A stretch of 64,000 nucleotides of DNA. It comes from an uncultured Verrucomicrobiae bacterium (GTDB taxonomy: Bacteria; Verrucomicrobiota; Verrucomicrobiia; Chthoniobacterales; JAFAMB01). The translations under genes and the position numbers were made by a program. Under the pieces are notes generated by a model. That model was given only the letters and a program-made list of their open reading frames with translations, did not search any database and was not told the origin of the DNA. The DNA is taken from the NCBI GenBank assembly GCA_963813025.1, contig CAWEXO010000008.1, positions 192,001-256,000 on the forward strand, in the 5' to 3' direction. Below, one piece after another: positions 28,030 through 45,850 of the stretch (positions are counted from its first letter, which is position 1; the number at the start of each line of letters is the position of its first letter).

Positions 28030-29157
28030 TAGTGCCTAATTGCGTAAGTTAGTTATATGTATGGCGACTTTCCCCTGATGTACCTGGGATTTGGTCCATT
28101 CGAAGGGAGCCGCATTGTTATTGTAGTTCTTGATGAAGGTGTCGATGGCGTTGCGCAGCTCTGCCACGCTGGTGAAGTTTGCCCCCTGGAGGGCTTGGCG
28201 GCTCAAGATACTAAACCAGATCTCAATCTGGTTGAGCCAAGAAGCGTGGGTTGGAGTGAAATGAAAATGCACATTGGGGTGAGCCTTCAACCAGCGATCT
28301 TGCTTTGGCTTATGGGTCGCAAGGTTGTCTAAGACCACATGAATTTCTTTGTCGAGATTTCCGGCAACTACCTGGTTCATAAACTCCAGGAATTCCCGTC
28401 GGCGCTGGCGCCGGTAATGACCAGCCTGCACTTGGCCGCTGGCAATGTTGAGGGCGGCAAAGAGAGTGGAGGTGCCATGGCGCTTGTACTCGTGGCTAAA
28501 ACCCGTCAGCGCCCTGCCATTGGGCAAGCGAATCCAACCTTGGGCTCTTTCCAGGGCTTGAATGGCTGGTTTTTCATCAATGGCCAAGATGAGCGCATTC
28601 TGGGGCGGATTGAGATAAAGACCGACAATGTCAGCGGCCTTGCGCACAAACTCCGGATCGGTGGAAATGCACCAGCTGCGGCGCCGTTCCAATTCAATGC
28701 CTTGTTGGCGCAAAATGCGCCAGACTTGATCGGAGGAAACATCGGCCAGACTCTGCGCCAGCAGTCGCCCATTCCAGCGCCCGTAGCCCGCCGGTGGATC
28801 TTCATCCAGCAGCGCCAAGACCCGCTTGACCGTCATTTGATCATACTTGGCCGGCTTTCCACTGCGTGGCGCGTCTTCCAAGCCAGCCAGGCCTTGGCGC
28901 ACAAAGCGCCGCCGCCATTTACTCACCGTCACCTCGGGAATGCGCAGGCTCTTGGCAATCGCACGTCCACTCAAGCCCGCTGCCGCCTTCAAGATAATCT
29001 GACTCCTGACCTTGAGCCGGTGTTCGACCCGTTGCGCTCGACTCCAACCCTCCAAGAGCTTGCGGTTTTCCACAGAAAGTTTGATGCAACCCATTGCCAT
29101 CCATCCAACAAATCATAATTTTTCATAAATATAAAGAACTAAAGCAACTAAGTACTA
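28030..29157 (-). mobile_element. IS630 family insertion sequence with TA target duplication
   Basis: Imperfect TIRs: TAGTGCCTAATTGCGTAAGTTAGTTATAT (left) vs TAGTACTTAGTTGCTTTAGTTCTTTATAT (right, reverse complement); TA within CTAG at both ends. Confidence 0.9.
28036..29100 (-). CDS. IS630 family transposase
   Basis: HTH, AIDEK, EYKRHGT, VLDNLATH, TPTHASWLNQIEIWF. Confidence 0.95.
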   Translation of the reverse strand: MAMGCIKLSVENRKLLEGWSRAQRVEHRLKVRSQIILKAAAGLSGRAIAKSLRIPEVTVSKWRRRFVRQGLAGLEDAPRSGKPAKYDQMTVKRVLALLDEDPPAGYGRWNGRLLAQSLADVSSDQVWRILRQQGIELERRRSWCISTDPEFVRKAADIVGLYLNPPQNALILAIDEKPAIQALERAQGWIRLPNGRALTGFSHEYKRHGTSTLFAALNIASGQVQAGHYRRQRRREFLEFMNQVVAGNLDKEIHVVLDNLATHKPKQDRWLKAHPNVHFHFTPTHASWLNQIEIWFSILSRQALQGANFTSVAELRNAIDTFIKNYNNNAAPFEWTKSQVHQGKVAIHITNLRN

Positions 29158-29321: not shown

Positions 29322-31649
29322 ATGGTCACCAGCCCCTGCGCGCCAGGAGATGCTTTCAAGCCTGCTTTCGTCGTTGGCGTTACCGGGCACATGGACCTCG
29401 ATCCGGCCGAACGAGATCGAATCAAAACCGAGGTAAAACGGGTCTTCAATTGGCTTCGCGCTTCACCGGGCGATCGGGGCGATGTGAGTCTCGGTCCAGG
29501 TCTCGCCCTGAAGAACACGCCCATCATTCTGCTCTCCTCTCTGGCGCCGGGCGCGGACCAGTTAGTGGTCGAGGCGGCTCGAGAAACGGATCCGCCCGTC
29601 CGAGTATTGGCTCCTCTGCCTTTCCTCAAAGACCAGTATTTGGAGGCTTCCACGTTCAAACAGGATGGCGTTACAAAAGATGAAGCCGCGAGCAAGTTTC
29701 TCGCAGATTTTCCCGAAGAGGATGCTTTCGTGGTCCGTCTCCTCAATGAGATCGATCTCGACGATGACGCATTGCGCGCCAAACACAGATCCATTCTCAT
29801 CGGCCCGGCTGGCAAACTGGAGCGTGACCGCCGCTACGCCGCTGCGGGCGAATACGTGGCTGCCTACTGTGACATCCTCATCGCGTTGACTGACACGGCA
29901 ATAGGCTGCCCGACGTACAACATGCTCGTCGGCCCAGGCGAAAACGAGGGCGCCCGGGCGGTCGCGGAGCTGAAACGGCGCGGAGTAACGCCGGGCCTCC
30001 TGCCTGTTCTGCCGACGTTGAGTTGGGCCGACAACGGGCCCGTAATTCACGTTTACGCACCCCGAAAGCCGAAAGAAGCGCCTGCGATAGCAGCGACGTC
30101 CAGAGGTGCAGCAAGAAAGCAATTGGAGATGCTTTACCCCTACGACTGCCGGCCGCCCGAAGTCAGCGAAAAAGACCACGACAATCCCGCTTGGCGCAAA
30201 GCCGGTCACGCGATCCTGCGAGCCATCGCGGAGCATTTGGAACGGTTGAATACCGAAAAAATTCAGATTGAACTAGCCCGAGAGAATAGAGCATTCGTTG
30301 AGATGCTGCCGGCCGCGATCCAATCAATCATCAGAAGCGTCGCGGAGTCACGCGCTTCCCGGGGCTGGCGAGCATCTCCAGACAACCCTTGATCGGATTG
30401 CTCGACTCCGGCGTCGCATTGCCGACTACAGTGCCCATTACAATGCGCGCCTAACCGGCCTGAAGCGCGCGCTATTCAGTCTCGCTTTTGGCGCTGCCCT
30501 CTTCTTCTCTTTGGCCGACAACTGGGATGTTGCCGTCTGGACACTGCCGCCAATCTTGTTCTTAACCGCCTTGGGACTGACATTTGCCGCCTGGATTGTT
30601 TATTTCCGCTTCAAAAGAACTGCGGCCGCCGAGCGCTGTGACGATTATCGCGCCATCGCGGAAGGACTGCGCGTGCAATTCTATTGGACGGCCTGCGGCA
30701 GCGGAGAGTCGGTTGCGTCGAACTATCTGCAACACCAGCGAGGCGAATTAGGCTGGATCCGTAACGTCATCAATGTCGCCGCCTTTCCACACGAGCCGAA
30801 CCGCGTGCGATTTAACCAGCTTTCGTTCGAGGAGCAACGTGCGACGTTGCAAAGCATCCGCGAAACTTGGATCGCCGGCCAGTGCACTTATTTTAAGAAG
30901 ACCATCAGCGATCTTAATCTCCGACGTGAAGTTTTTTCGACTTACTCTCAAGTTTTGCTCTGGAGCGGATTTATCCTCTTCGCGTTCTTCTTTTTCTTTG
31001 CTCAACACACTTCCACTCCGGTTGTGTCGCACATGCTTGCTCGTTCTCTCTTTGGTGCGGGTTCTCTTATCCTCGCCATGCTTTACCGCGAGACGTATGC
31101 TCGAGGGCGGGCAACCGCCTCGCGCGGAGGGCAGGGCCAACCGGAGTCGTTGATTGGCGGATTCCGCCAGCGGTTTTTTTTGCTGCCCAGAATGTTTTTG
31201 CCGGATCGAGTACGGTCCCTGAAATGCGGAAACCTGATGCTTAACAGCCTGCTGTCAGCCGCCCTCGTCCTACTCATCGTCGGGACGGTTTATCTTCTCG
31301 AGGGAGTTGTGCCTTGGCTCCCGTCTGCCTACAAGCTTGGCAGTATTTCCAAGTATCTGGTCCTTGCCGGAGCCGTTCTCTGTGGCGCATGGGTGGAAGT
31401 TAACTTTTTCGCCGAACACATTCGCCATTACTCTTCCATGGCGTCTCTCTTCCAAGCTGCCGGCGTGCGCTTTGATGAATATTTTGATTGGCTGAAAAAG
31501 CCGGCAAGGACCAGATAGAAGCGGTTGAAAAACAGGTTATCGCGAACATCCAATCCCTCATTGTGGCTGTGGGCCGCGAATCCCTTTCGGAGAACGCCGA
31601 GTGGCTCATCACCCACCGAGCGCGGCCGCTCGAGCCGGTGAGCGTATGA
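29322..31649 (+). CDS. SLOG (YpsA-like) domain fused to SLATT-like multi-TM effector; frameshifts near 30335 and 31497
   Basis: VVGVTGH, LSSLAPGADQLV, YAAAGEYVAAYCDILIAL (SLOG); DYRAIAEGLRVQFYW and about 6 TM helices; third-frame tail VGRESLSENAEWLITHRARPLEP ending at TGA 31649. Confidence 0.75.
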
Positions 31650-31695: not shown

Positions 31696-32259
31696 CTAAG
31701 GCCCGGCTAAGTGCAGCCAGTTCGTATCTGCCTTTTCGATGTTGCTGCTCGATATCACTCTTAAATCGCTTTCAGCGCGCCTTCATTCCCGCAAAGGTAA
31801 AGTTTCCCCTTATAGACAGCAAACGCGTCCGGACCATCGACATCCGCTAATACTCCGTTAGCTACTCCGTAGGAACAAAATGCGCCATACTGCGGAGCAT
31901 ATTTTCCGGGATCTTTGTCAAAATCGGCTTTATCCGCCGACCGAAACAAACAAGTACGTGGCGCCCTGATAAGTGCTCTAGGATCGCCGGATTCCCTTTG
32001 ACCGGCTTCCCTTGTTTGAAGTAGGCGACCACGTCGTACCCCTTCAAGATAACTCCTTGACTATCTACGTTTACTTTGGCTGGTCGCACTTCCTTTCGCC
32101 TCCTTCGGAGATGCGTTTTGAGCCGGAACGTCTGGCTTCCTGCTATTCTGGGCAGGATCCAATGTTGGCTGCGTCGGAAGCGACAACCGCATTATTTCCA
32201 GCAACAGCCAGCGCGGCTAGCAAGGAAGCCGCAGTCAGCGAGTATAGGAGTCTTTTCAT
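31696..32259 (-). pseudogene. Exported YHS-domain protein, multiply frameshifted
   Basis: Signal peptide MKRLLYSLTAASLL; ILKGYDVVAYF, DPGKYAPQYGAFCSYG, GKLYL and IEKADTNW fall in different frames. Confidence 0.8.
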
Positions 32260-32503: not shown

Positions 32504-35500
32504 TCATGTGAGGCATAACGCGTCCAGAATTTTAGCTCGAAGGCGCTGAGCGGGCAGGTCCTTTGGATTCGCGACGAGCGCCTTATCAATCGCAGCCAGC
32601 GCGAGTTCCGGCCGGTGTTGCGCCAGTAGCATCTCGCCGGCGCGCGTGCAGAAAGCGCTGTTTTTCGGGAGCCGCGCCAAGCCGAATGAGCGAAGAAAGT
32701 CGGCGCGCTTGGAGTCGGTTTCAAACCCCGCCAGCGCGATATGAAGCAATGGATGATCGGGAAGAAAAACTAAAGCGTTTCGCAGCCATTGTTCGGTTAC
32801 ATTTGGATTTGTCAGAAGAGCGTTGTCCACCCACTCGACAACTTTGACGTCGCTCGCCGGAAAGATCGTTCGATCACTTCCGGTACTGAAAAACCACCGT
32901 AGAAAGCGCGCATTCGGACCGGAGCTCTTGCGCTAAGGCCTTCAATTGTCTCGTCAGCTGCGATCTGCGTTCCTCATCGACCGCTACGAGCGAGCCATCG
33001 TCTGAAAATTTGAGTCCGCTTGCGACAATCGAGAGCGATTCGACTTGCAACTCTGGGGAACCGGCCATCGAACCAGAGAAGCGCGTTCTCGCTGCGTCGC
33101 CATCCGACTCTTTCAGCTGTCGGGCCAGCGCTACCGGAGTTGCCGCGTCCCAGAGTTTAGCAGTTTTGTCCCAGCTCGCGGTCAGGATCCGAGCACCGTC
33201 CGGACTAAATGCCGCCCATCGGACAGTATCCTGATGGTCAAAGGAGGCGATGAGCTTGCCCGAGACTGCATCCCAGAGCTTGGCGGTGTTGTCTGCGCTG
33301 GCCGTCAGGATCCGAGCGCCGTCCGGACTAAACGCCCCGTGGTACACACTCGCCTGATGGACGAAAGTGGCGATAAGCTTGCCTGAAGCCGCATCCCAGA
33401 GCTTGGCGGTTTTGTCCAAGCTCGCTGTCAGGATCCGGGCACCATTCGGACTAAATGCCGCTTGCAAGACCTCATCCTGATGGTCGAAGGAGGCGAGGAG
33501 CTTGCCCGAGGCCGCGTCCCAAAGCCCGGCGCTGTGATCTGCGCTTGCCGTCAGGATCCGAGCACCGTCCGGACTAAACGCCGCGTCATAGACCGCATCT
33601 TGGTGGTCGAAGGAGCCGATGAGCTTGCCCGAGGCCGCATCCCAGAGCTTGGCGGATCTGTCTGCGCTGGCCGTCAGGATCCGAGCACCGTTCCGGACTG
33701 AACGCCGCATCGTTGACCGCATCCTGGTGGTCAAAGGAGGCGATGAGTTTGCCCGAGGCCGTATCCCAGAGCTTGGCGGTCTTGTCTTTGCTTGCTGTCA
33801 GGATCCGAGCACCGTCCGGACTAAACGCCGCCGCGTTGACCCCATCCTGGTGAGCAAAGGAGGCGACGAGCTTGCCCGAGGCCGCATCCCAGAGCTTGGC
33901 GGTTTTGTCCGCGCTCGCCGTCAGGATCCGGGTCACCGTCGGGACTAAACGCCGCATCGGTGACCCCATCCTGATGGTCAAACGAGCCGATCAGCTTCCC
34001 GGAGGTCGCATCCCAAAGCTTGGCGGTTTTGTCTGCGCTCCCCGTCAGGATCCGAGCGCCGTCCCGACTGAACGCCGCGCGATAGAGACCATCCTGATGC
34101 GTAAAAGAGGTGACGGGTTCGCCACGAGGCCACTTCCCAGAGTTTGACAGTTTTGTCCCAGCTTGCCGTCAGGACTCGAGCACCGTCCGGACTAAACGCC
34201 GCGCGTCTCAACACTCTCCTGATGGGCAAAGGAGGCGATGAGCTTGCCCGAGGCCGCATCCCAGAGCTTGGCAGTTTTGTCCCAGCTTGCCGTCAGGATC
34301 CGAGCGCCGTCCGGGACTGAACACCGCGTCGAGACCACATCCTGATGGGCAAAGGAGGCGATGAGCTTGCCCGAGGCCGCATCCCAGAGCTTGGCGGTTT
34401 TGTCCCCGCTCGCCGTCAGGATCTGAGCGCCGTCCGGACTAAACACCGCGTCGTAGACCGCATCCTGGTGGACGAAGGAGGCGATGCAGCTTGCCCGAGG
34501 CCACATCCCAAAGCTTGGCGGTTCTGTCTCTGCTTGCCGTCAGGATCCGAGCGCCGTCCGGACTAAACGCTCCGCGGTACACAGCTGGCCTGATGTTTGA
34601 AAGACGCGATCAGTTGGCCAGAGGCCGCATCCCAGAGCCTGGCGGTTTTGTCCGCGCTTGCCGTCAGGATCCGAGCGCCGTCGGGACTAAACGCGCGCCG
34701 TTGACCTCATCCTGATGGTCAAACGAGGCGATCAGTTTCCCCGAGGCCGCATCCCAGAGCTTGGCAGTGTGATCCGCGCTCGCGGTCAGGATCCGCGCAC
34801 CGTCCGGACTAAACGCCGCAGTGTTAACCGTACCCTGATGGGCAAAGACAACGATGAGCTTGCCCGAGGCCGCATCCCAGAGCTTCGCAGTTTTATCCCA
34901 GCTTGCGGTCAGAATCCGAGCGCCGTCCGGACTAAACACCGCGTCGACGACCACATCCTGATAGGCAAAGGAGGCGACCAACGGCGGCAGCGCCTTTTCA
35001 CGATGAACGATCAGTTCTTGGAAGAATCGTTCTGAAGCAACTTGATTTTGCGGGTCGAACTTGATCGCACGCGCAAGAAGAGCGATGCCCTCCCGCCACT
35101 CCCCCAACTGAAACTGACGCTCGGCTTGGTTAAAGCTCGCCCAGCTCGCCTGCCGCAATTGTTCCTGCAGCTTCGCCGTGACCTGCGCTTCAGACTTAAA
35201 CGCTTGGGCCGCCGTCCGACGCTGGCGTTCAGCCCGAAGCCATTGAAACCCGGCGACGATCGCGAGAACAGTGATCGCGGCCATCACCGCGTAACGAATC
35301 CGTTCTTGGACCTTGTTTGCGCCGTTTCCGCTCGCAAGTGCTCGCTTGGATGTATTCAATCTGTTCACGGCTGAGCGACGGTTCAAAGTCTCTGACTAAT
35401 TTTTCGCCTTCCGCCAGGGGAAGTCCGGGCCCGAGCAGGTCATCCTTTTGTTGTCCGCGGCTCTGCCAGAGCTTCAGGCTGGAATCCAGGCGGTCCCGCA

Positions 35501-37576
35501 TCCGCAGGAACTCGCGGTTTTCTTTCAGCCATTCTTTGACGCGTTGCCATTCGCGCAGCAGCGCTTCGTGCGCGACGCTCACGGTCACCTCTCCCTGCGG
35601 ATCGGTGTCCGCGACCAACAGACGTTTCTCAATGAATAGATCCACAAAGCCTTTCGCGCCGGCTTTTTGATTGTGGCGGATCCCTTCTGATGTCGACGAA
35701 ATCACGATAAGGCACCGTCCGCCGGTTGGGCACTTCTTCTTCGCCCTGGCCCAACGTGACAAGATGCCGCATGACTACAGGAAACGCCTTTTGTTCGTGC
35801 GGTCGCAAAGTGCTGAACACCCTCTCGGCATGCTTGGCCAGCGCGCCTTTCAATTCCCCGAGTTCGCGATAGTCCGACCACGCGAAGCAAGTCGTCACCT
35901 CGGGCGCCTGCTCCTCGTAAAGCAGTGACAAAACATGTTCGAGCAAGGGCAAGGATTCCGGTGTCGCACGAGGCAGCATCGCGCAGCGCTTGATCCAGGC
36001 GTTGGCCCGTCTCTCGCTCTTGCTCGAAGCGCAGACCGGCCGCTTCGGCCGGCAGCCGAATCATGTTACCGATCTCGTAGGCGGTGGGAGGCCGAAGGTC
36101 GACTTTTCCAGCCGGCTTGGTGAGCTCGATCAGATCCGGGAACTGCTGATACCAAGAGTAAAAGTCGCTCCGTAACGTTGCCAGGACAAAGACTCGACCG
36201 CTCCGAACCAAACCAGCAATCGCGGAAATATATTTCTGCCGAATCTCCGGTGAAAAGCCGGTCGTGAACAATTCTTCCAACTGGTCAACCACCAAAGCCA
36301 AACGGGCTTTCGGTAGCTCCAGCCTCTCCCTCTGCTGCCGAGCCAGGTCCGCGTCGTCCGATCTTCCTGATCCCCGCAGTTGCCGCTCTCTTTCCTCCAA
36401 GATAATGCGAATGCTCGATTTTCCACTCTCGCGCGGCGTGATCGAGCGCGTCCCGGACCCGAAGCGCGACGCTGTCGGAGTGTTCCCTCAATTCGGTCGC
36501 CAAATCACGGACTGCGTTTAGCGATTCCGGGTCCTCCAAGGCCGGCAGCGCAGCTGGACTCCAGCAGCGCGGCTGCCAAAGCATCGAAGCAATCACCATC
36601 GCCTCCGCCGGCTCCTGGTCTGGTCACCGCCCGCCGCCAGAGCCCAATTCCTTCAATCGTTTCGGGTTGCGTTAGCAACGGAAGCACGCCCGCTCGCACC
36701 AGCGAGCTTTTTCCGGAGCCGCTCGCACCCACGACCAGCACAAACGGCCGTTGCGCTCTGACTTGCACTTCCAAGGCCTCCAACACTGCCCCGATTGCCT
36801 TCGTTCTGCCGTGAAAGATGGGCGCGTGTTCGAAATCGAAAACCTCCAGTCCGCGGAATGGGTTTTCTTTCCAACGCCGGGCCTGGCGGCCCCGACCGAT
36901 CAATTGGCGTTGGCGTTCGCGGGAAACCTGTGTGGAGAGGAAATCCCGAAAATGCTCTCGAAACAGGCGCTCGAACTCTTCGAGATTGTAATAATTGTTG
37001 AATGCACCAATGAACTGGCCCTCGCCGTCTTTTAGCCAAGACTCGAAAAACGCGTTGAGCGCCTTCCACTGCCGAAGAAATTCTTCGAGTTTTTCCGGCG
37101 AATCGAGCGGAGGGTTCGGCTGGCTCCGGTTGCGATATACGTGCAGCGCCGGAATGCCGGGCGTCTTTTTACGCTGTGCCACAGCCCAGGCAATCTCGAA
37201 GTCCGTTCCGGATCGAGGCTCACTCCCGTCCGGCATCTGAAATCGAGGATGCAATTTTGTGCCGAGGCGGGACCATAGGATACAAATGACCAAGTCGAAT
37301 TGGGCCGTATTTGGGATTTGGTCCTGATAGCCGAGTTCTGGTGAAAACCGCTGGTATTCCCAGAAGTAGGGACAAAGAATCAGCTCGCTGGATTCCGGTT
37401 CGATCAGAACTATCCGGCGATTCCAGGGATTGTTCGTCGCGTAGAAGATTCGAATACTGAACACTGACCGGAATTCCCAGTTCTTCCGCGGTCACGCGAA
37501 TCAGCCGGTCCGCAATCGTTCGCTCTGCCCGGACGTCTCCTGGGGAAGAAACAAAAACCCGGATAGTCTTCATCAT
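32504..37576 (-). CDS. NLR-like STAND receptor: TIR-like (DUF4062-type) - nSTAND1-type NTPase - TM - 15 WD40 - TPR; split by many frameshifts
   Basis: [58 protein letters not shown] (Walker A), [11 protein letters not shown] (Walker B), [21 protein letters not shown]; hydrophobic helix; WD repeats; [13 protein letters not shown]. Fragments are collinear on one strand. Confidence 0.82.
33145..34990 (-). repeat. Tandem array of about 15 x 123-bp WD40-coding repeats with high DNA identity
   Basis: A TCAGGATCCG-like anchor recurs about every 123 bp (33182, 33305, 33428 ... 34909); 41-aa consensus [41 protein letters not shown]. Confidence 0.92.
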
Positions 37577-37815: not shown

Positions 37816-38202
37816 TCACTTCCAGAGCACGTACCTGCCACCATTGGTGCAAACGATGACCAGATTCATCAGGACGAGCATAAGGTCGTAATGCCAGCCA
37901 GATGCCTTTTCGCCCCAGAACCCTGTGTGCCAGACGAAGATCTTCCGGTGGATTGCTCCCAGCATGACCAGTATCATACCGATCGCGGCAAGTTGCGTGA
38001 GCACGCCGAAGGCTACTCCCAGCCCACCGGCAAGTTCCACCACGCCCAGAAACATTGTGAAGGCCGGGCTCATGCCGATGCTCTGCGCGCGGCCTTTAGG
38101 GTCTCTGAGGTGGCTCCAGCCGCTGGTGACAAAGATTGCCGCCACCATAAGCCGCAGCAGCAGCAAGCTGAGGTTAGTGAACTGCGCGAGTTGTGGGAAC
38201 AT
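37816..38202 (-). CDS. DoxX family membrane protein
   Basis: LLLLRLMVAAIFVTSG, ELAGGL, GWHYDL, GGRY. Confidence 0.88.
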   Translation of the reverse strand: MFPQLAQFTNLSLLLLRLMVAAIFVTSGWSHLRDPKGRAQSIGMSPAFTMFLGVVELAGGLGVAFGVLTQLAAIGMILVMLGAIHRKIFVWHTGFWGEKASGWHYDLMLVLMNLVIVCTNGGRYVLWK

Positions 38203-38259
38203 CAGTATCTCCTCTCTCGCACCTATCGGCCGCCGTCGATGTTGGTGGTTTGCCAGAGC

Positions 38260-38757
38260 TCAAAGATTCATTGTTATGTTCGAGCCATTTAGAAGCGTCT
38301 GGTAAACAACGCAATACCGCTCTGTCAATGCCAGGAGTTTCTCTCGCTCGCTGGAGCTCGCATCGGTATCCAATGAAATGCGAAGTCGGATCTGCCTGAA
38401 ACCAACCGGGACATCCTTCGCGACGGCTAAGGTACCCCGGAAATCGAGATCGCCTTCCGCTGTCACAGCGCCACCACGTAACTCAATGCCGAGAGCCGTG
38501 GCGACTGCGCCGACGGTCACGCCGGTGCAGGCCACCAGCGCTTGCAGAAGCATGTCACCTGAGCAAGCCGTCATATCAGTACCACCCGCAGCAGGGTGAA
38601 GGCCAGCTGCTACGAGGGAGTCGTTTGTTGCGATGCTACACGTGGCGTTCTCTCCGAGAGTGCCTTTGGCCCGAAGGGTCACAAGCGCGGACGTCGGATC
38701 GGTAAGATACCTCTGTTTCACGGGAGCCTGCATGGCTCTTAGTTGATCGCGGTCCAT
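38260..38757 (-). CDS. OsmC/Ohr family protein
   Basis: GLHPAAGG, ACSGDMLLQALVACTG, GDLDFRG, TERYCVVYQTL; start MDRDQL. Confidence 0.88.
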   Translation of the reverse strand: MDRDQLRAMQAPVKQRYLTDPTSALVTLRAKGTLGENATCSIATNDSLVAAGLHPAAGGTDMTACSGDMLLQALVACTGVTVGAVATALGIELRGGAVTAEGDLDFRGTLAVAKDVPVGFRQIRLRISLDTDASSSEREKLLALTERYCVVYQTLLNGSNITMNL

Positions 38758-38863
38758 ACAAAAACGTTCTTTGACTCGAAAGGCTTTTTCATGCAAGCGG
38801 CGATCCCCGTACAAGCTTGAGAGATAATGCAACCAGAGAGCTAGTGCGCCGACACTTTCCCGT

Positions 38864-44583: not shown

Positions 44584-45850
44584 CTATTTGGCTTCGTGAG
44601 CGGCGAGTCGTTTGAACGATTCGTTCAATTCATGATCGGCGCGCTTGACGCCATCCGCGATCGAGATTTCGCCTGACATCATCGCGGTGTAGTTGCGGAT
44701 GAAGATTTTTTCGATTTCCTGAAAATTGGCCGGCGATGGCACCGGCAGCGTGTGCGGCAAAGTCTGATAATACAGCGCTGCACTCGGCGGGAACGCGAGG
44801 AAAGCCGGCGTCTCAGCGGCCGATTTTCGCCCAGGGATGCCCCCTCCGCCTTCGCCCTCTTCCTTCTGCGTTTCGAAGCTCGTGAGTTCGCCGACAAGCT
44901 CCTTGGCAAGATCCGGATTTTTCGACATCTTGGAGATTCCATAGCCGCCGAACCCGATGACGGTGTAGTCATTCACTTTGGTCGGCGGAATAGCGATATC
45001 CATGTCGAGCTTGGCCGCCTTCGCGTTCTGCACGATCCAATGGCCGCGCGAGATCATCGCAACCTGTCCAGCCTTGAATTGGTTGTCCATCGTGTTCTTC
45101 CCGGGAATCGGCGACACTTTATCGACATGGATCAGGTCATGGAGGAATTGCAGCGACTCGGACACTTTGGGGTCAAGCATGTTGGATGCGGTCCAGTCGG
45201 CGTTCAGGATTGACGTTCCGTTCGAATAGAACCACGGCTGCACGAAGAAGAACTGGTTAGGGACCTCGTAACCGAATTGAGTCACGTTCCCTGCCGCGTC
45301 GCGGACAGTCAATTTCTTTGGCGACCTCCCGGAACTGATCCCACGTCCAGCCTGTCTTGGGAAACTCAACGCCGGCATCCTTAAACAGTTTCCGGTTGTA
45401 GTTGATCATGATGTTGTTCCAGCCGATCGGAATAAAGTAGTTTTTGCCCTTATAGGATGCGTATTTGAAGAGGGCCGGATCGAAATCGGAATAGCTCGGA
45501 TGGCTCGCAATGTAATCATCGAGCGGAATGAACATATTGCGTGTCTCGAATGTCCTGAACGTTTCGATCGCCGTCCCGTAGACGTCGTAGGCATTGTTTG
45601 CGTTGAACTGCGACAGAACGCGGGTGACGTAGTCGCCCCAGCCGTTTGATATTGGATCGATGGCAATCTCGACTTTTGCGTTGGGATACTTCTGATTGAA
45701 TCGGGCGACGGCGTTGGTGACCGCTTTAAGCTCGGCGGCGTTGCCAAAGGCCATCAGGCGCAAATTGGCGGAAACGTCGGAGGCGAAACCGTTACTTGAA
45801 GCCAGCGCAAAGCCGGCCGCGAGCAGAAAGGTAGAAATTTTAGATTTCAC
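44584..45850 (-). CDS. Sugar ABC substrate-binding protein (one frameshift near 45318)
   Basis: Signal peptide, INYNRKLF, WTWDQFREVAK continuing as KLTVRDAAG in the next frame. Confidence 0.85.

Follow-up and report, generated by a model that had tools for sequence, protein, structure and literature searches.

The stretch of DNA considered here, called the window, comprises 64,000 nucleotides from an uncultured Verrucomicrobiae bacterium (Chthoniobacterales; GenBank assembly GCA_963813025.1, contig CAWEXO010000008.1, positions 192,001 to 256,000). Its reverse strand carries a tandem array of WD40 repeats that an earlier note made from the sequence alone, called here the sequence-only reading, had described as the rapidly re-targetable surface of a receptor. 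Judged by its surroundings, the array is the sensor domain inside a 5.07-kb gene for a NOD-like receptor (NLR)-like protein, the rest of which was absent from that reading. The gene is collinear over 5054 bp, at 84% nucleotide identity, with an intact gene of 1684 amino acids (aa) in a genome of the same genus (G001), and encodes in order a DUF4062/TIR-like domain, an nSTAND1 ATPase, a hydrophobic helix, fifteen blades and a TPR tail (Table 1). By domain content it is an NLR-like STAND receptor with a WD40 sensor. Read across homologous genes, the variable residues of its blades are a stable blade-specific code under purifying selection and not a sign of fast shuffling.

Table 1. Features of the receptor locus in window coordinates
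Feature	Position	Strand	Remarks
Convergent membrane protein gene, like SLATT-containing effectors	29322..31647	+	774 aa in G001; 2 frame-breaking indels in the window
YHS-domain protein gene (product predicted to be secreted), immediately downstream of the receptor	31696..32259	-	PF04945, E 8.4e-9; 5 extra bases
NLR-like gene	32504..37576	-	Intact homologues run to about 1684 codons; 21 one-base indels break the frame in the assembly
C-terminal tail, about 212 aa	32504..33140	-	TPR-like pair at its end (32528-32680); TPR_14, E 4.8e-5
15 WD40 blades, 41 aa each, forming a predicted double propeller (7+8)	33142..34981	-	Blade-specific top-face residues at unit codons 17, 19, 20, 35
Hydrophobic helix of 19 residues between ATPase and sensor, predicted to anchor the protein in the membrane	35237..35293	-	
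nSTAND1 NTPase	35445..36867	-	Walker A 36706-36729; Walker B 36272-36295
N-terminal DUF4062/TIR-like domain, predicted effector that cleaves NAD+	36870..37576	-	Conserved SGTxxE motif 37195-37212

Tandem Repeats Finder reports a single long array at 33142-34977 with a period of 123, 14.9 copies, 79% matches and a score of 2043. The earlier description of about fifteen near-identical 123-bp units is right in number and length and wrong in degree, as nucleotide identity among units 2-15 averages about 80% (range 70-92%). Eight of the 15 units contain 1-base indels (7 extra, 2 missing), so that no reading frame spans the array. The WD40 repeat family PF00400 matches it with an E-value of 1.7e-42, and the His, Ser/Thr and Asp residues of the blade tetrad are present in 14 of the 15 blades, which identifies the array as a WD40 beta-propeller. 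The motifs quoted at the outset, HQD[A/E/T/G/V]V.. and TAS[A/L/W/K/G]D.., were both located, and the reported concentration of variation at fixed positions is real: unit codons 17, 19, 20 and 35, four of 41, account for 44% of pairwise non-synonymous differences, and seven codons account for 62%. At the remaining 34 codons the proportion of non-synonymous differences (pN) is 0.06 versus 0.36 for synonymous ones (pS). By published hotspot definitions (R1-2, R1, D-1, plus R2; PMC3419727), codons 17, 19 and 35 correspond to the top-face hotspots R1-2, R1 and D-1, and codon 20 to R2. An intact homologue, modelled with AlphaFold2 from its single sequence (predicted local distance difference test 73, predicted TM-score (pTM) 0.54, 59 strands), has the variable codons in the d-a loop, the start of strand a and the b-c loop, in agreement with the top-face location that had been proposed. 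Double propellers, including 2ymu and Apaf-1, are among the top fold matches of the model, at TM-scores of 0.35-0.43 that leave the arrangement unfixed. Because an odd linker follows blade 7 in the window's array type, and a 40-residue spacing occurs at the equivalent place in another type, two propellers of seven and eight blades are plausible.

Homologues were drawn from 20 genome stretches and 80 metagenome loci, yielding 34 complete genes with at least 10 blades, 32 of them distinct. The distinct arrays have 15 blades in 22 cases, 16 in five, 14 in three, and 11 and 10 in one each; the counts are approximate for L091 and L074, which have irregular blade spacing, and later-listed loci including L165, L197 and L192 stand outside them. 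With 15 the commonest number among intact homologues, the assembly miscount once offered as the alternative to a 7+8 arrangement is ruled out. When the N-terminal part of the protein served as query, 31 of 36 genomes in the same family gave a match, as did 2 of 24 from other families, with paralogues counted, and the closest genome matches belong to Verrucomicrobiota and Chthoniobacterales. Many homologues of this N-terminal module have C-termini other than WD40. At loci L165, L197 and L192 the same module carries yet other types of array, one of them with 16 blades and a code of its own, and there are distant copies in Gammaproteobacteria and Planctomycetota. In the window's own genome (G000, an 80%-complete assembly), neither tblastn nor blastn found another WD40 array, and candidate donors for shuffling were rejected on this ground. 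Two nSTAND1 paralogues without WD40 repeats lie on its contig C5 (L026:3818-7741 and L026:9522-14351; 1308 and 1610 codons), one of them with a repetitive coiled-coil-like region.

The decisive comparison is between blades at the same position in different genes. The window's blade code recurs in the same order in seven intact genes, four of which come from genomes of three genera. In these seven, 8-12 of the window's 15 blades find their best match at the same position; the remaining 25 arrays give 0-4. Of the 105 blades in the seven genes, 83 are nearest to the same position of another gene, 3 to a blade of the same gene and 10 to another blade, with 9 ties, where same-position candidates make up only 6 of every 104. 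The window's copy was dropped from this test, from the estimates of the ratio of non-synonymous to synonymous divergence (dN/dS, or omega), from the maximum-likelihood codon model and from the first part of the codon-site tests. Between same-position blades, hotspot dN/dS is 0.31 in the window's group of seven genes (95% interval 0.24-0.40) and 0.17 and 0.16 in two other groups (six and five genes), and scaffold dN/dS is 0.10-0.12 (0.12 in the window's group). Type C, type D and singleton arrays fall outside these groups; group B2 contributed 6 of its 10 genes here and 8 of 10 to the later codon-site test. A maximum-likelihood codon model gives 0.44 for hotspots, 0.14 for the scaffold and 0.14 for the N-terminal part. 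Omega = 1 is rejected with twice the log-likelihood difference (2dL) at 85.5, and adding classes with omega above 1 gains a 2dL of only 3.87, mainly through codon 19 of blade 6.

Divergence at four-fold sites is 0.468 between same-position blades and 0.465 in the non-repeat part (28 pairs), and derived synonymous states common within a gene occur at 1.11, 1.22 and 0.83 times expectation in the three groups, so there is little sign of ongoing homogenisation. Twelve of 15 close pairs (at least 93% identity before the array) are collinear, three differ by blade loss through two events and none is reordered, although in several near-identical pairs the same strain may have been assembled twice. 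No strain-level sequence data were found for the window's own species, in which a further, fast layer of allelic change may exist. Same-position matching, low hotspot dN/dS and the collinearity of close pairs are the grounds for calling the code stable.

These results bear directly on the possibility that the locus encodes a receptor like HET-E and other fungal HNWD proteins, re-targeted on strain time scales through ongoing concerted evolution and repeat shuffling. Within a single gene the pattern is indeed that of fungal HNWD genes, with a conserved scaffold and variable hotspots. The between-blade hotspot ratio is 2.5 in the window and 1.2-3.1 in five young intact arrays with pS below 0.5; the blades being non-independent, these ratios are descriptive only (over all 33 arrays hotspot pN is 0.46-0.65 and scaffold pS 0.26-0.81). 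Copy number in the family ranges from 10 to 16 with several array orders, and L088 lacks one blade, adjoining a 91% identical blade, relative to the 99.8% identical L089, a loss that could be an assembly collapse. Such a receptor is nonetheless very improbable. Taken by position between homologues, hotspot dN/dS is 0.16-0.44 and hence below 0.5 in all three groups, which contradicts fungal-type diversifying selection and speaks against the rapid re-targeting claimed for the array. The positions are conserved across genera, close pairs are mostly collinear and never reordered, within-gene sharing of synonymous states lies near expectation, and the blades within one gene share only 59-72% identity in intact homologues of the window's type.

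Over longer times the arrays do change, and in this sense the notion of a recombination-diversified surface survives, with little sign of ongoing shuffling. Relatives show blade gain or loss and differently ordered arrays. Locus L032 is an apparent sensor swap that joins an L055-like N-terminal half to an L091-like linker and array: its TIR-like part is 93% like L055 and 78% like L091, whereas its membrane linker is 71% like L055 versus 87% like L091, and eight of its blades are 89-97% like L091. L032 consists of a single short contig, which may be chimeric through assembly. Four-fold divergence between genera is 0.39-0.49 for the receptor gene (window excluded) versus 0.61-0.70 for rpoB and parE, which points to horizontal spread of the receptor as likely; the conservation across genera would therefore span less time than the genera themselves. 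Hotspot pN between blades keeps to the band given above in arrays of every synonymous age, which speaks for bursts of change. Change of a punctuated kind fits these observations, in which an array would be rebuilt, its hotspots diversified and the result then frozen.

Most complete homologues are single frames of 1677-1748 aa that unite effector and repeats in one protein, and only the window's copy is split by indels. It differs from G001 by 21 indels not divisible by three in 5054 bp (4.2 per kb), compared with 34 in 46,117 bp (0.74 per kb) for 37 other genes, 25 of which have none. Four soil sequencing runs yielded between 476 and 2012 short pieces of contig each, with at least 88% identity, and at 33933/33934 and 35968/35969 different soil contigs lack one or the other of two adjacent bases; joints in this material stem from repeats and other organisms and were set aside. 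The window's copy is probably an assembly consensus of mixed alleles, which would account for the frameshifts and for some of the high identity within it (0.74 aa and 0.79 nucleotide between blades, versus 0.53-0.68 and 0.59-0.72 in the seven intact homologues of the same type). The alternative, which concerns this copy and not the family, is a true pseudogene decayed by indels. The indels of the receptor gene would fit it, as would those of the YHS and SLATT-like genes (Table 1) and the IS630 element beside the locus. It is improbable all the same: the N-terminal 864 codons contain no stop once read in register, just 2 of 15 extra bases lengthen a single-base run (P 0.014), independent soil contigs lack either neighbouring base at the two sites named, and the copy sits on the shortest amino-acid tip branch and not the longest (0.017-0.022 versus 0.072-0.077 for G001, the rpoB and parE tips being about equal). 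Elsewhere on the contig, a sugar-binding protein gene at window 44584-45850 (reverse strand) is split into two frames by one extra base relative to G001, and the 739 bp at G000 C8 257568-258306, just past the window, hold four extra single bases.

The remaining domains are those of a predicted switch with an effector. PF20703 (nSTAND1) is found in four frame pieces of the window's gene, covering model positions 1-378 of 379, and matches an intact homologue with an E-value of 3.4e-88. Walker A is present in 32 of 32 complete homologues and the Walker B pattern in 31, as in STAND NTPases. The N-terminal 235 residues score 0.93-0.95 against DUF4062 clusters in the ESM Atlas, which compares language-model features, and have no match among solved structures. 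DUF4062 domains have been described as TIR-like NADases, with Swarozyc, TEP1, NWD1 and NWD2 as members (10.64898/2026.05.01.722283). Glu127 is invariant in 12 of 12 members examined and its motif is present in 31 of 32 complete homologues; it may be the equivalent of Swarozyc E97, a correspondence drawn without an alignment. In 43 of 45 homologues the most hydrophobic stretch (mean Kyte-Doolittle value 1.4-2.4) lies 97-125 residues before the array, and an Arg/Lys cluster precedes the helix, which is predicted to cross the membrane. The C-terminal tail is 202-221 aa long in most complete homologues. Locus L043 (G028 C18), among the youngest arrays, is a 2091-codon frame with a long N-terminal extension and a different TIR-like type (54% to L055), yet its ATPase is 87-90% like that of L055.

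Two neighbouring genes accompany the receptor to different extents. The YHS gene, 84% identical to that of L055 in the window and with a signal peptide judged by eye from N-termini, follows 25 of the 34 complete homologues on the same strand, including all seven of the window's array type. Of the nine loci without it, two hold fewer than 400 downstream bases and seven more than 600. The SLATT-like protein scores 0.93-0.96 against SLATT_1/DUF4231 clusters in the ESM Atlas; its gene lies beside 7 of 34 complete homologues and 6 of the 7 of the window's type. At eight of the 34 loci a TPR-S/MAP3K_TRAF_bd gene occupies the same slot. For instance, L084:9538-11406 and L050:2356-4539 encode TPR-S/MAP3K_TRAF_bd proteins beside group B2 receptors, one of them with a weak cyclase-like C-terminus. 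Comparing the profiles of the SLATT-like protein and the TIR-like domain returned nothing, and PDB sequence searches with the two gave no credible match. A SLOG domain suspected at the start of the neighbour gene found no support in any search.

The frequent YHS partner raises the possibility that the sensor guards a self component, with its propellers or tail bound to an envelope molecule or to the secreted YHS protein encoded beside it and the receptor firing once this partner is altered, or that it serves envelope signalling unrelated to immunity. A constant ligand would suit the strong positional conservation, and sensor and YHS protein are both predicted to lie outside the cytoplasm. The YHS protein, however, stays conserved (59-84% to the first sequence) between loci whose arrays differ considerably in their top faces, and it is missing beside seven complete homologues despite ample downstream sequence, so that a guard function appears doubtful.

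The probable reading, held with moderate confidence, is that the array is the fixed-specificity sensor of a membrane-anchored NLR-like defence receptor and is only occasionally rebuilt. Its topology, ligand, activity and effector link are modelled on STAND and DUF4062 precedent. The 7+8 propellers would make up a clamp in the periplasm, beyond a single membrane helix, where a conserved foreign or damage-related protein may bind the position-locked double propeller. Binding would oligomerise the cytoplasmic nSTAND1 domain, the oligomers would switch on the DUF4062/TIR-like NAD+-cleaving domain, and NAD+ cleavage would then arrest the cell, either by itself or by way of the SLATT-like membrane protein encoded next door. 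New specificities probably arise in bursts, by repeat re-amplification, quick hotspot change and swaps of whole sensors between paralogues, to be frozen by selection and spread horizontally. A fuller version of this scheme is decidedly tentative and rather unlikely in all its parts: a transmembrane NLR whose periplasmic 7+8 clamp, together with the secreted YHS protein, detects invaders still outside the cytoplasm and passes the signal across the inner membrane to the nSTAND1-TIR-like module, which in turn triggers a SLATT-type pore, with soil Chthoniobacterales holding a repertoire that is born in bursts, frozen, swapped between paralogues and traded between genera.

A number of observations weigh against a fixed-specificity defence receptor or its parts. 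In the window's group hotspots evolve 2.5-3 times faster than the scaffold, blade 6 has a dN/dS of 0.84, one site has a posterior of 0.96 for omega above 1, and at most one or two sites may exceed that value. Group B2 has a 22% excess of within-gene shared synonymous states, and the 15 close pairs include two blade-loss events. The array groups are named by their own blade signatures, so that the grouping is not independent of the arrays, and the phylogenetic tree is a quick tree. When genes are ranked instead by the region before the array (at least 82% identity), 4 of the 11 nearest to the window's have a different array, with 16, 16, 16 and 10 blades, which means that array change is not rare. 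The pTM of 0.54 does not fix the 7+8 split. The Pfam match to DUF4062 is weak (2 of 12 members, best E 0.048), as is Pfam support for SLATT, and both assignments rest on language-model features. PADLOC found no matching defence system, only repeat and P-loop cross-matches. As for the mixed-allele origin of the window's copy, a two-allele test for the extra bases is borderline (P 0.09 in its first form, 0.025-0.91 over 12 settings), and the source reads were not found among the sequencing runs searched, the best of which shares 0.09 of words, and no run of RNA holding the sequence was listed.

Fungal HNWD NLRs combine a STAND ATPase with internally conserved WD40 repeats, variable top-face sites and a predicted double propeller (PMC12222747, PMC13449251), and the window's receptor resembles HET-D, HET-E as well as HET-R of Podospora in these respects, though with less certainty in internal conservation. 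It differs in having nSTAND1 in place of NACHT and a DUF4062-like in place of a HET domain (neither NACHT nor HET was matched), a hydrophobic helix before the sensor, units of 41 aa, and purifying instead of diversifying selection between homologues. Identity between blades is 80-100% in HNWD proteins; against the HNWD internal-conservation cut-off of 0.7, the window's values lie above it but are probably inflated, and those of its intact homologues are 0.53-0.68 (aa) and 0.59-0.72 (nucleotide).

Among prokaryotes, highly repetitive WD40 proteins with conserved repeats and diverse hotspots were already known (PMC5587647), as were bacterial NLRs with high internal repeat conservation (10.1101/2020.01.06.895854, PMC13449251), and rapid diversification of bacterial NLR repeats had been raised as a possibility (10.1101/2020.01.06.895854). 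Unlike those accounts, as far as their available text goes, the present one compares blade positions between homologous genes, which reveals position-locked hotspots and episodic rebuilding. WD40 sensors occur among defence-associated STAND clusters (PMC13581612), and the order effector, STAND, beta-propeller is shared with bacterial Apaf-1-like STAND and Avs receptors. The DUF4062-nSTAND1-helix-WD40-TPR order and the possible membrane crossing, here known from genes alone, set the family apart from tested Avs families as described. Its DUF4062-like domain, which bears a conserved Glu and is followed by a STAND ATPase and WD40 repeats, recalls TEP1, NWD1 and NWD2, although these human proteins have NACHT, and in Swarozyc a small auxiliary domain senses the portal. 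In type VII Thoeris a TIR signal acts on a SLATT effector (10.64898/2025.12.03.692087), and there, as here, a gene with a TIR-like domain adjoins one for a SLATT-like membrane protein. In the window, by contrast, the TIR-like domain is fused to the STAND receptor and the SLATT-like gene is convergent and linked in a minority of loci. The literature searched, supplements and most subscription papers excepted, contains no account of the family or of its YHS linkage.

Hypervariability within a gene is, on its own, no evidence of rapid re-targeting. Fungal-type rapid diversification had been proposed for bacterial NLRs with similar WD40 repeats (10.1101/2020.01.06.895854), and this family allows the position-by-position test between homologues, which finds the arrays static for long periods and rebuilt now and then. 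Several sensor types can be told apart by their conserved blade codes and are open to ligand screening. If the helix does cross the membrane, the protein would be an NLR-type switch with its sensor outside the cytoplasm. A further caution is that metagenome assemblies can distort genes that are widely shared in soil, introducing false frameshifts and inflating the identity of repeats.

Around the receptor locus, an IS630-like transposase gene (DDE_3, HTH_32) at window 28036-29100 on the reverse strand lies directly upstream of the SLATT-like gene and was not found in the related loci searched. On the other side, DoxX and OsmC-like genes (window 37816-38850, reverse strand) stand between the receptor and a sugar ABC operon, in a 1.2-kb stretch absent from the syntenic region of G001. 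Elsewhere in the genome, fragments of a second YHS and SLATT-like pair lie at about 419700-420080 of contig C14, and a further YHS gene lies at 65403-65762 of contig C11.

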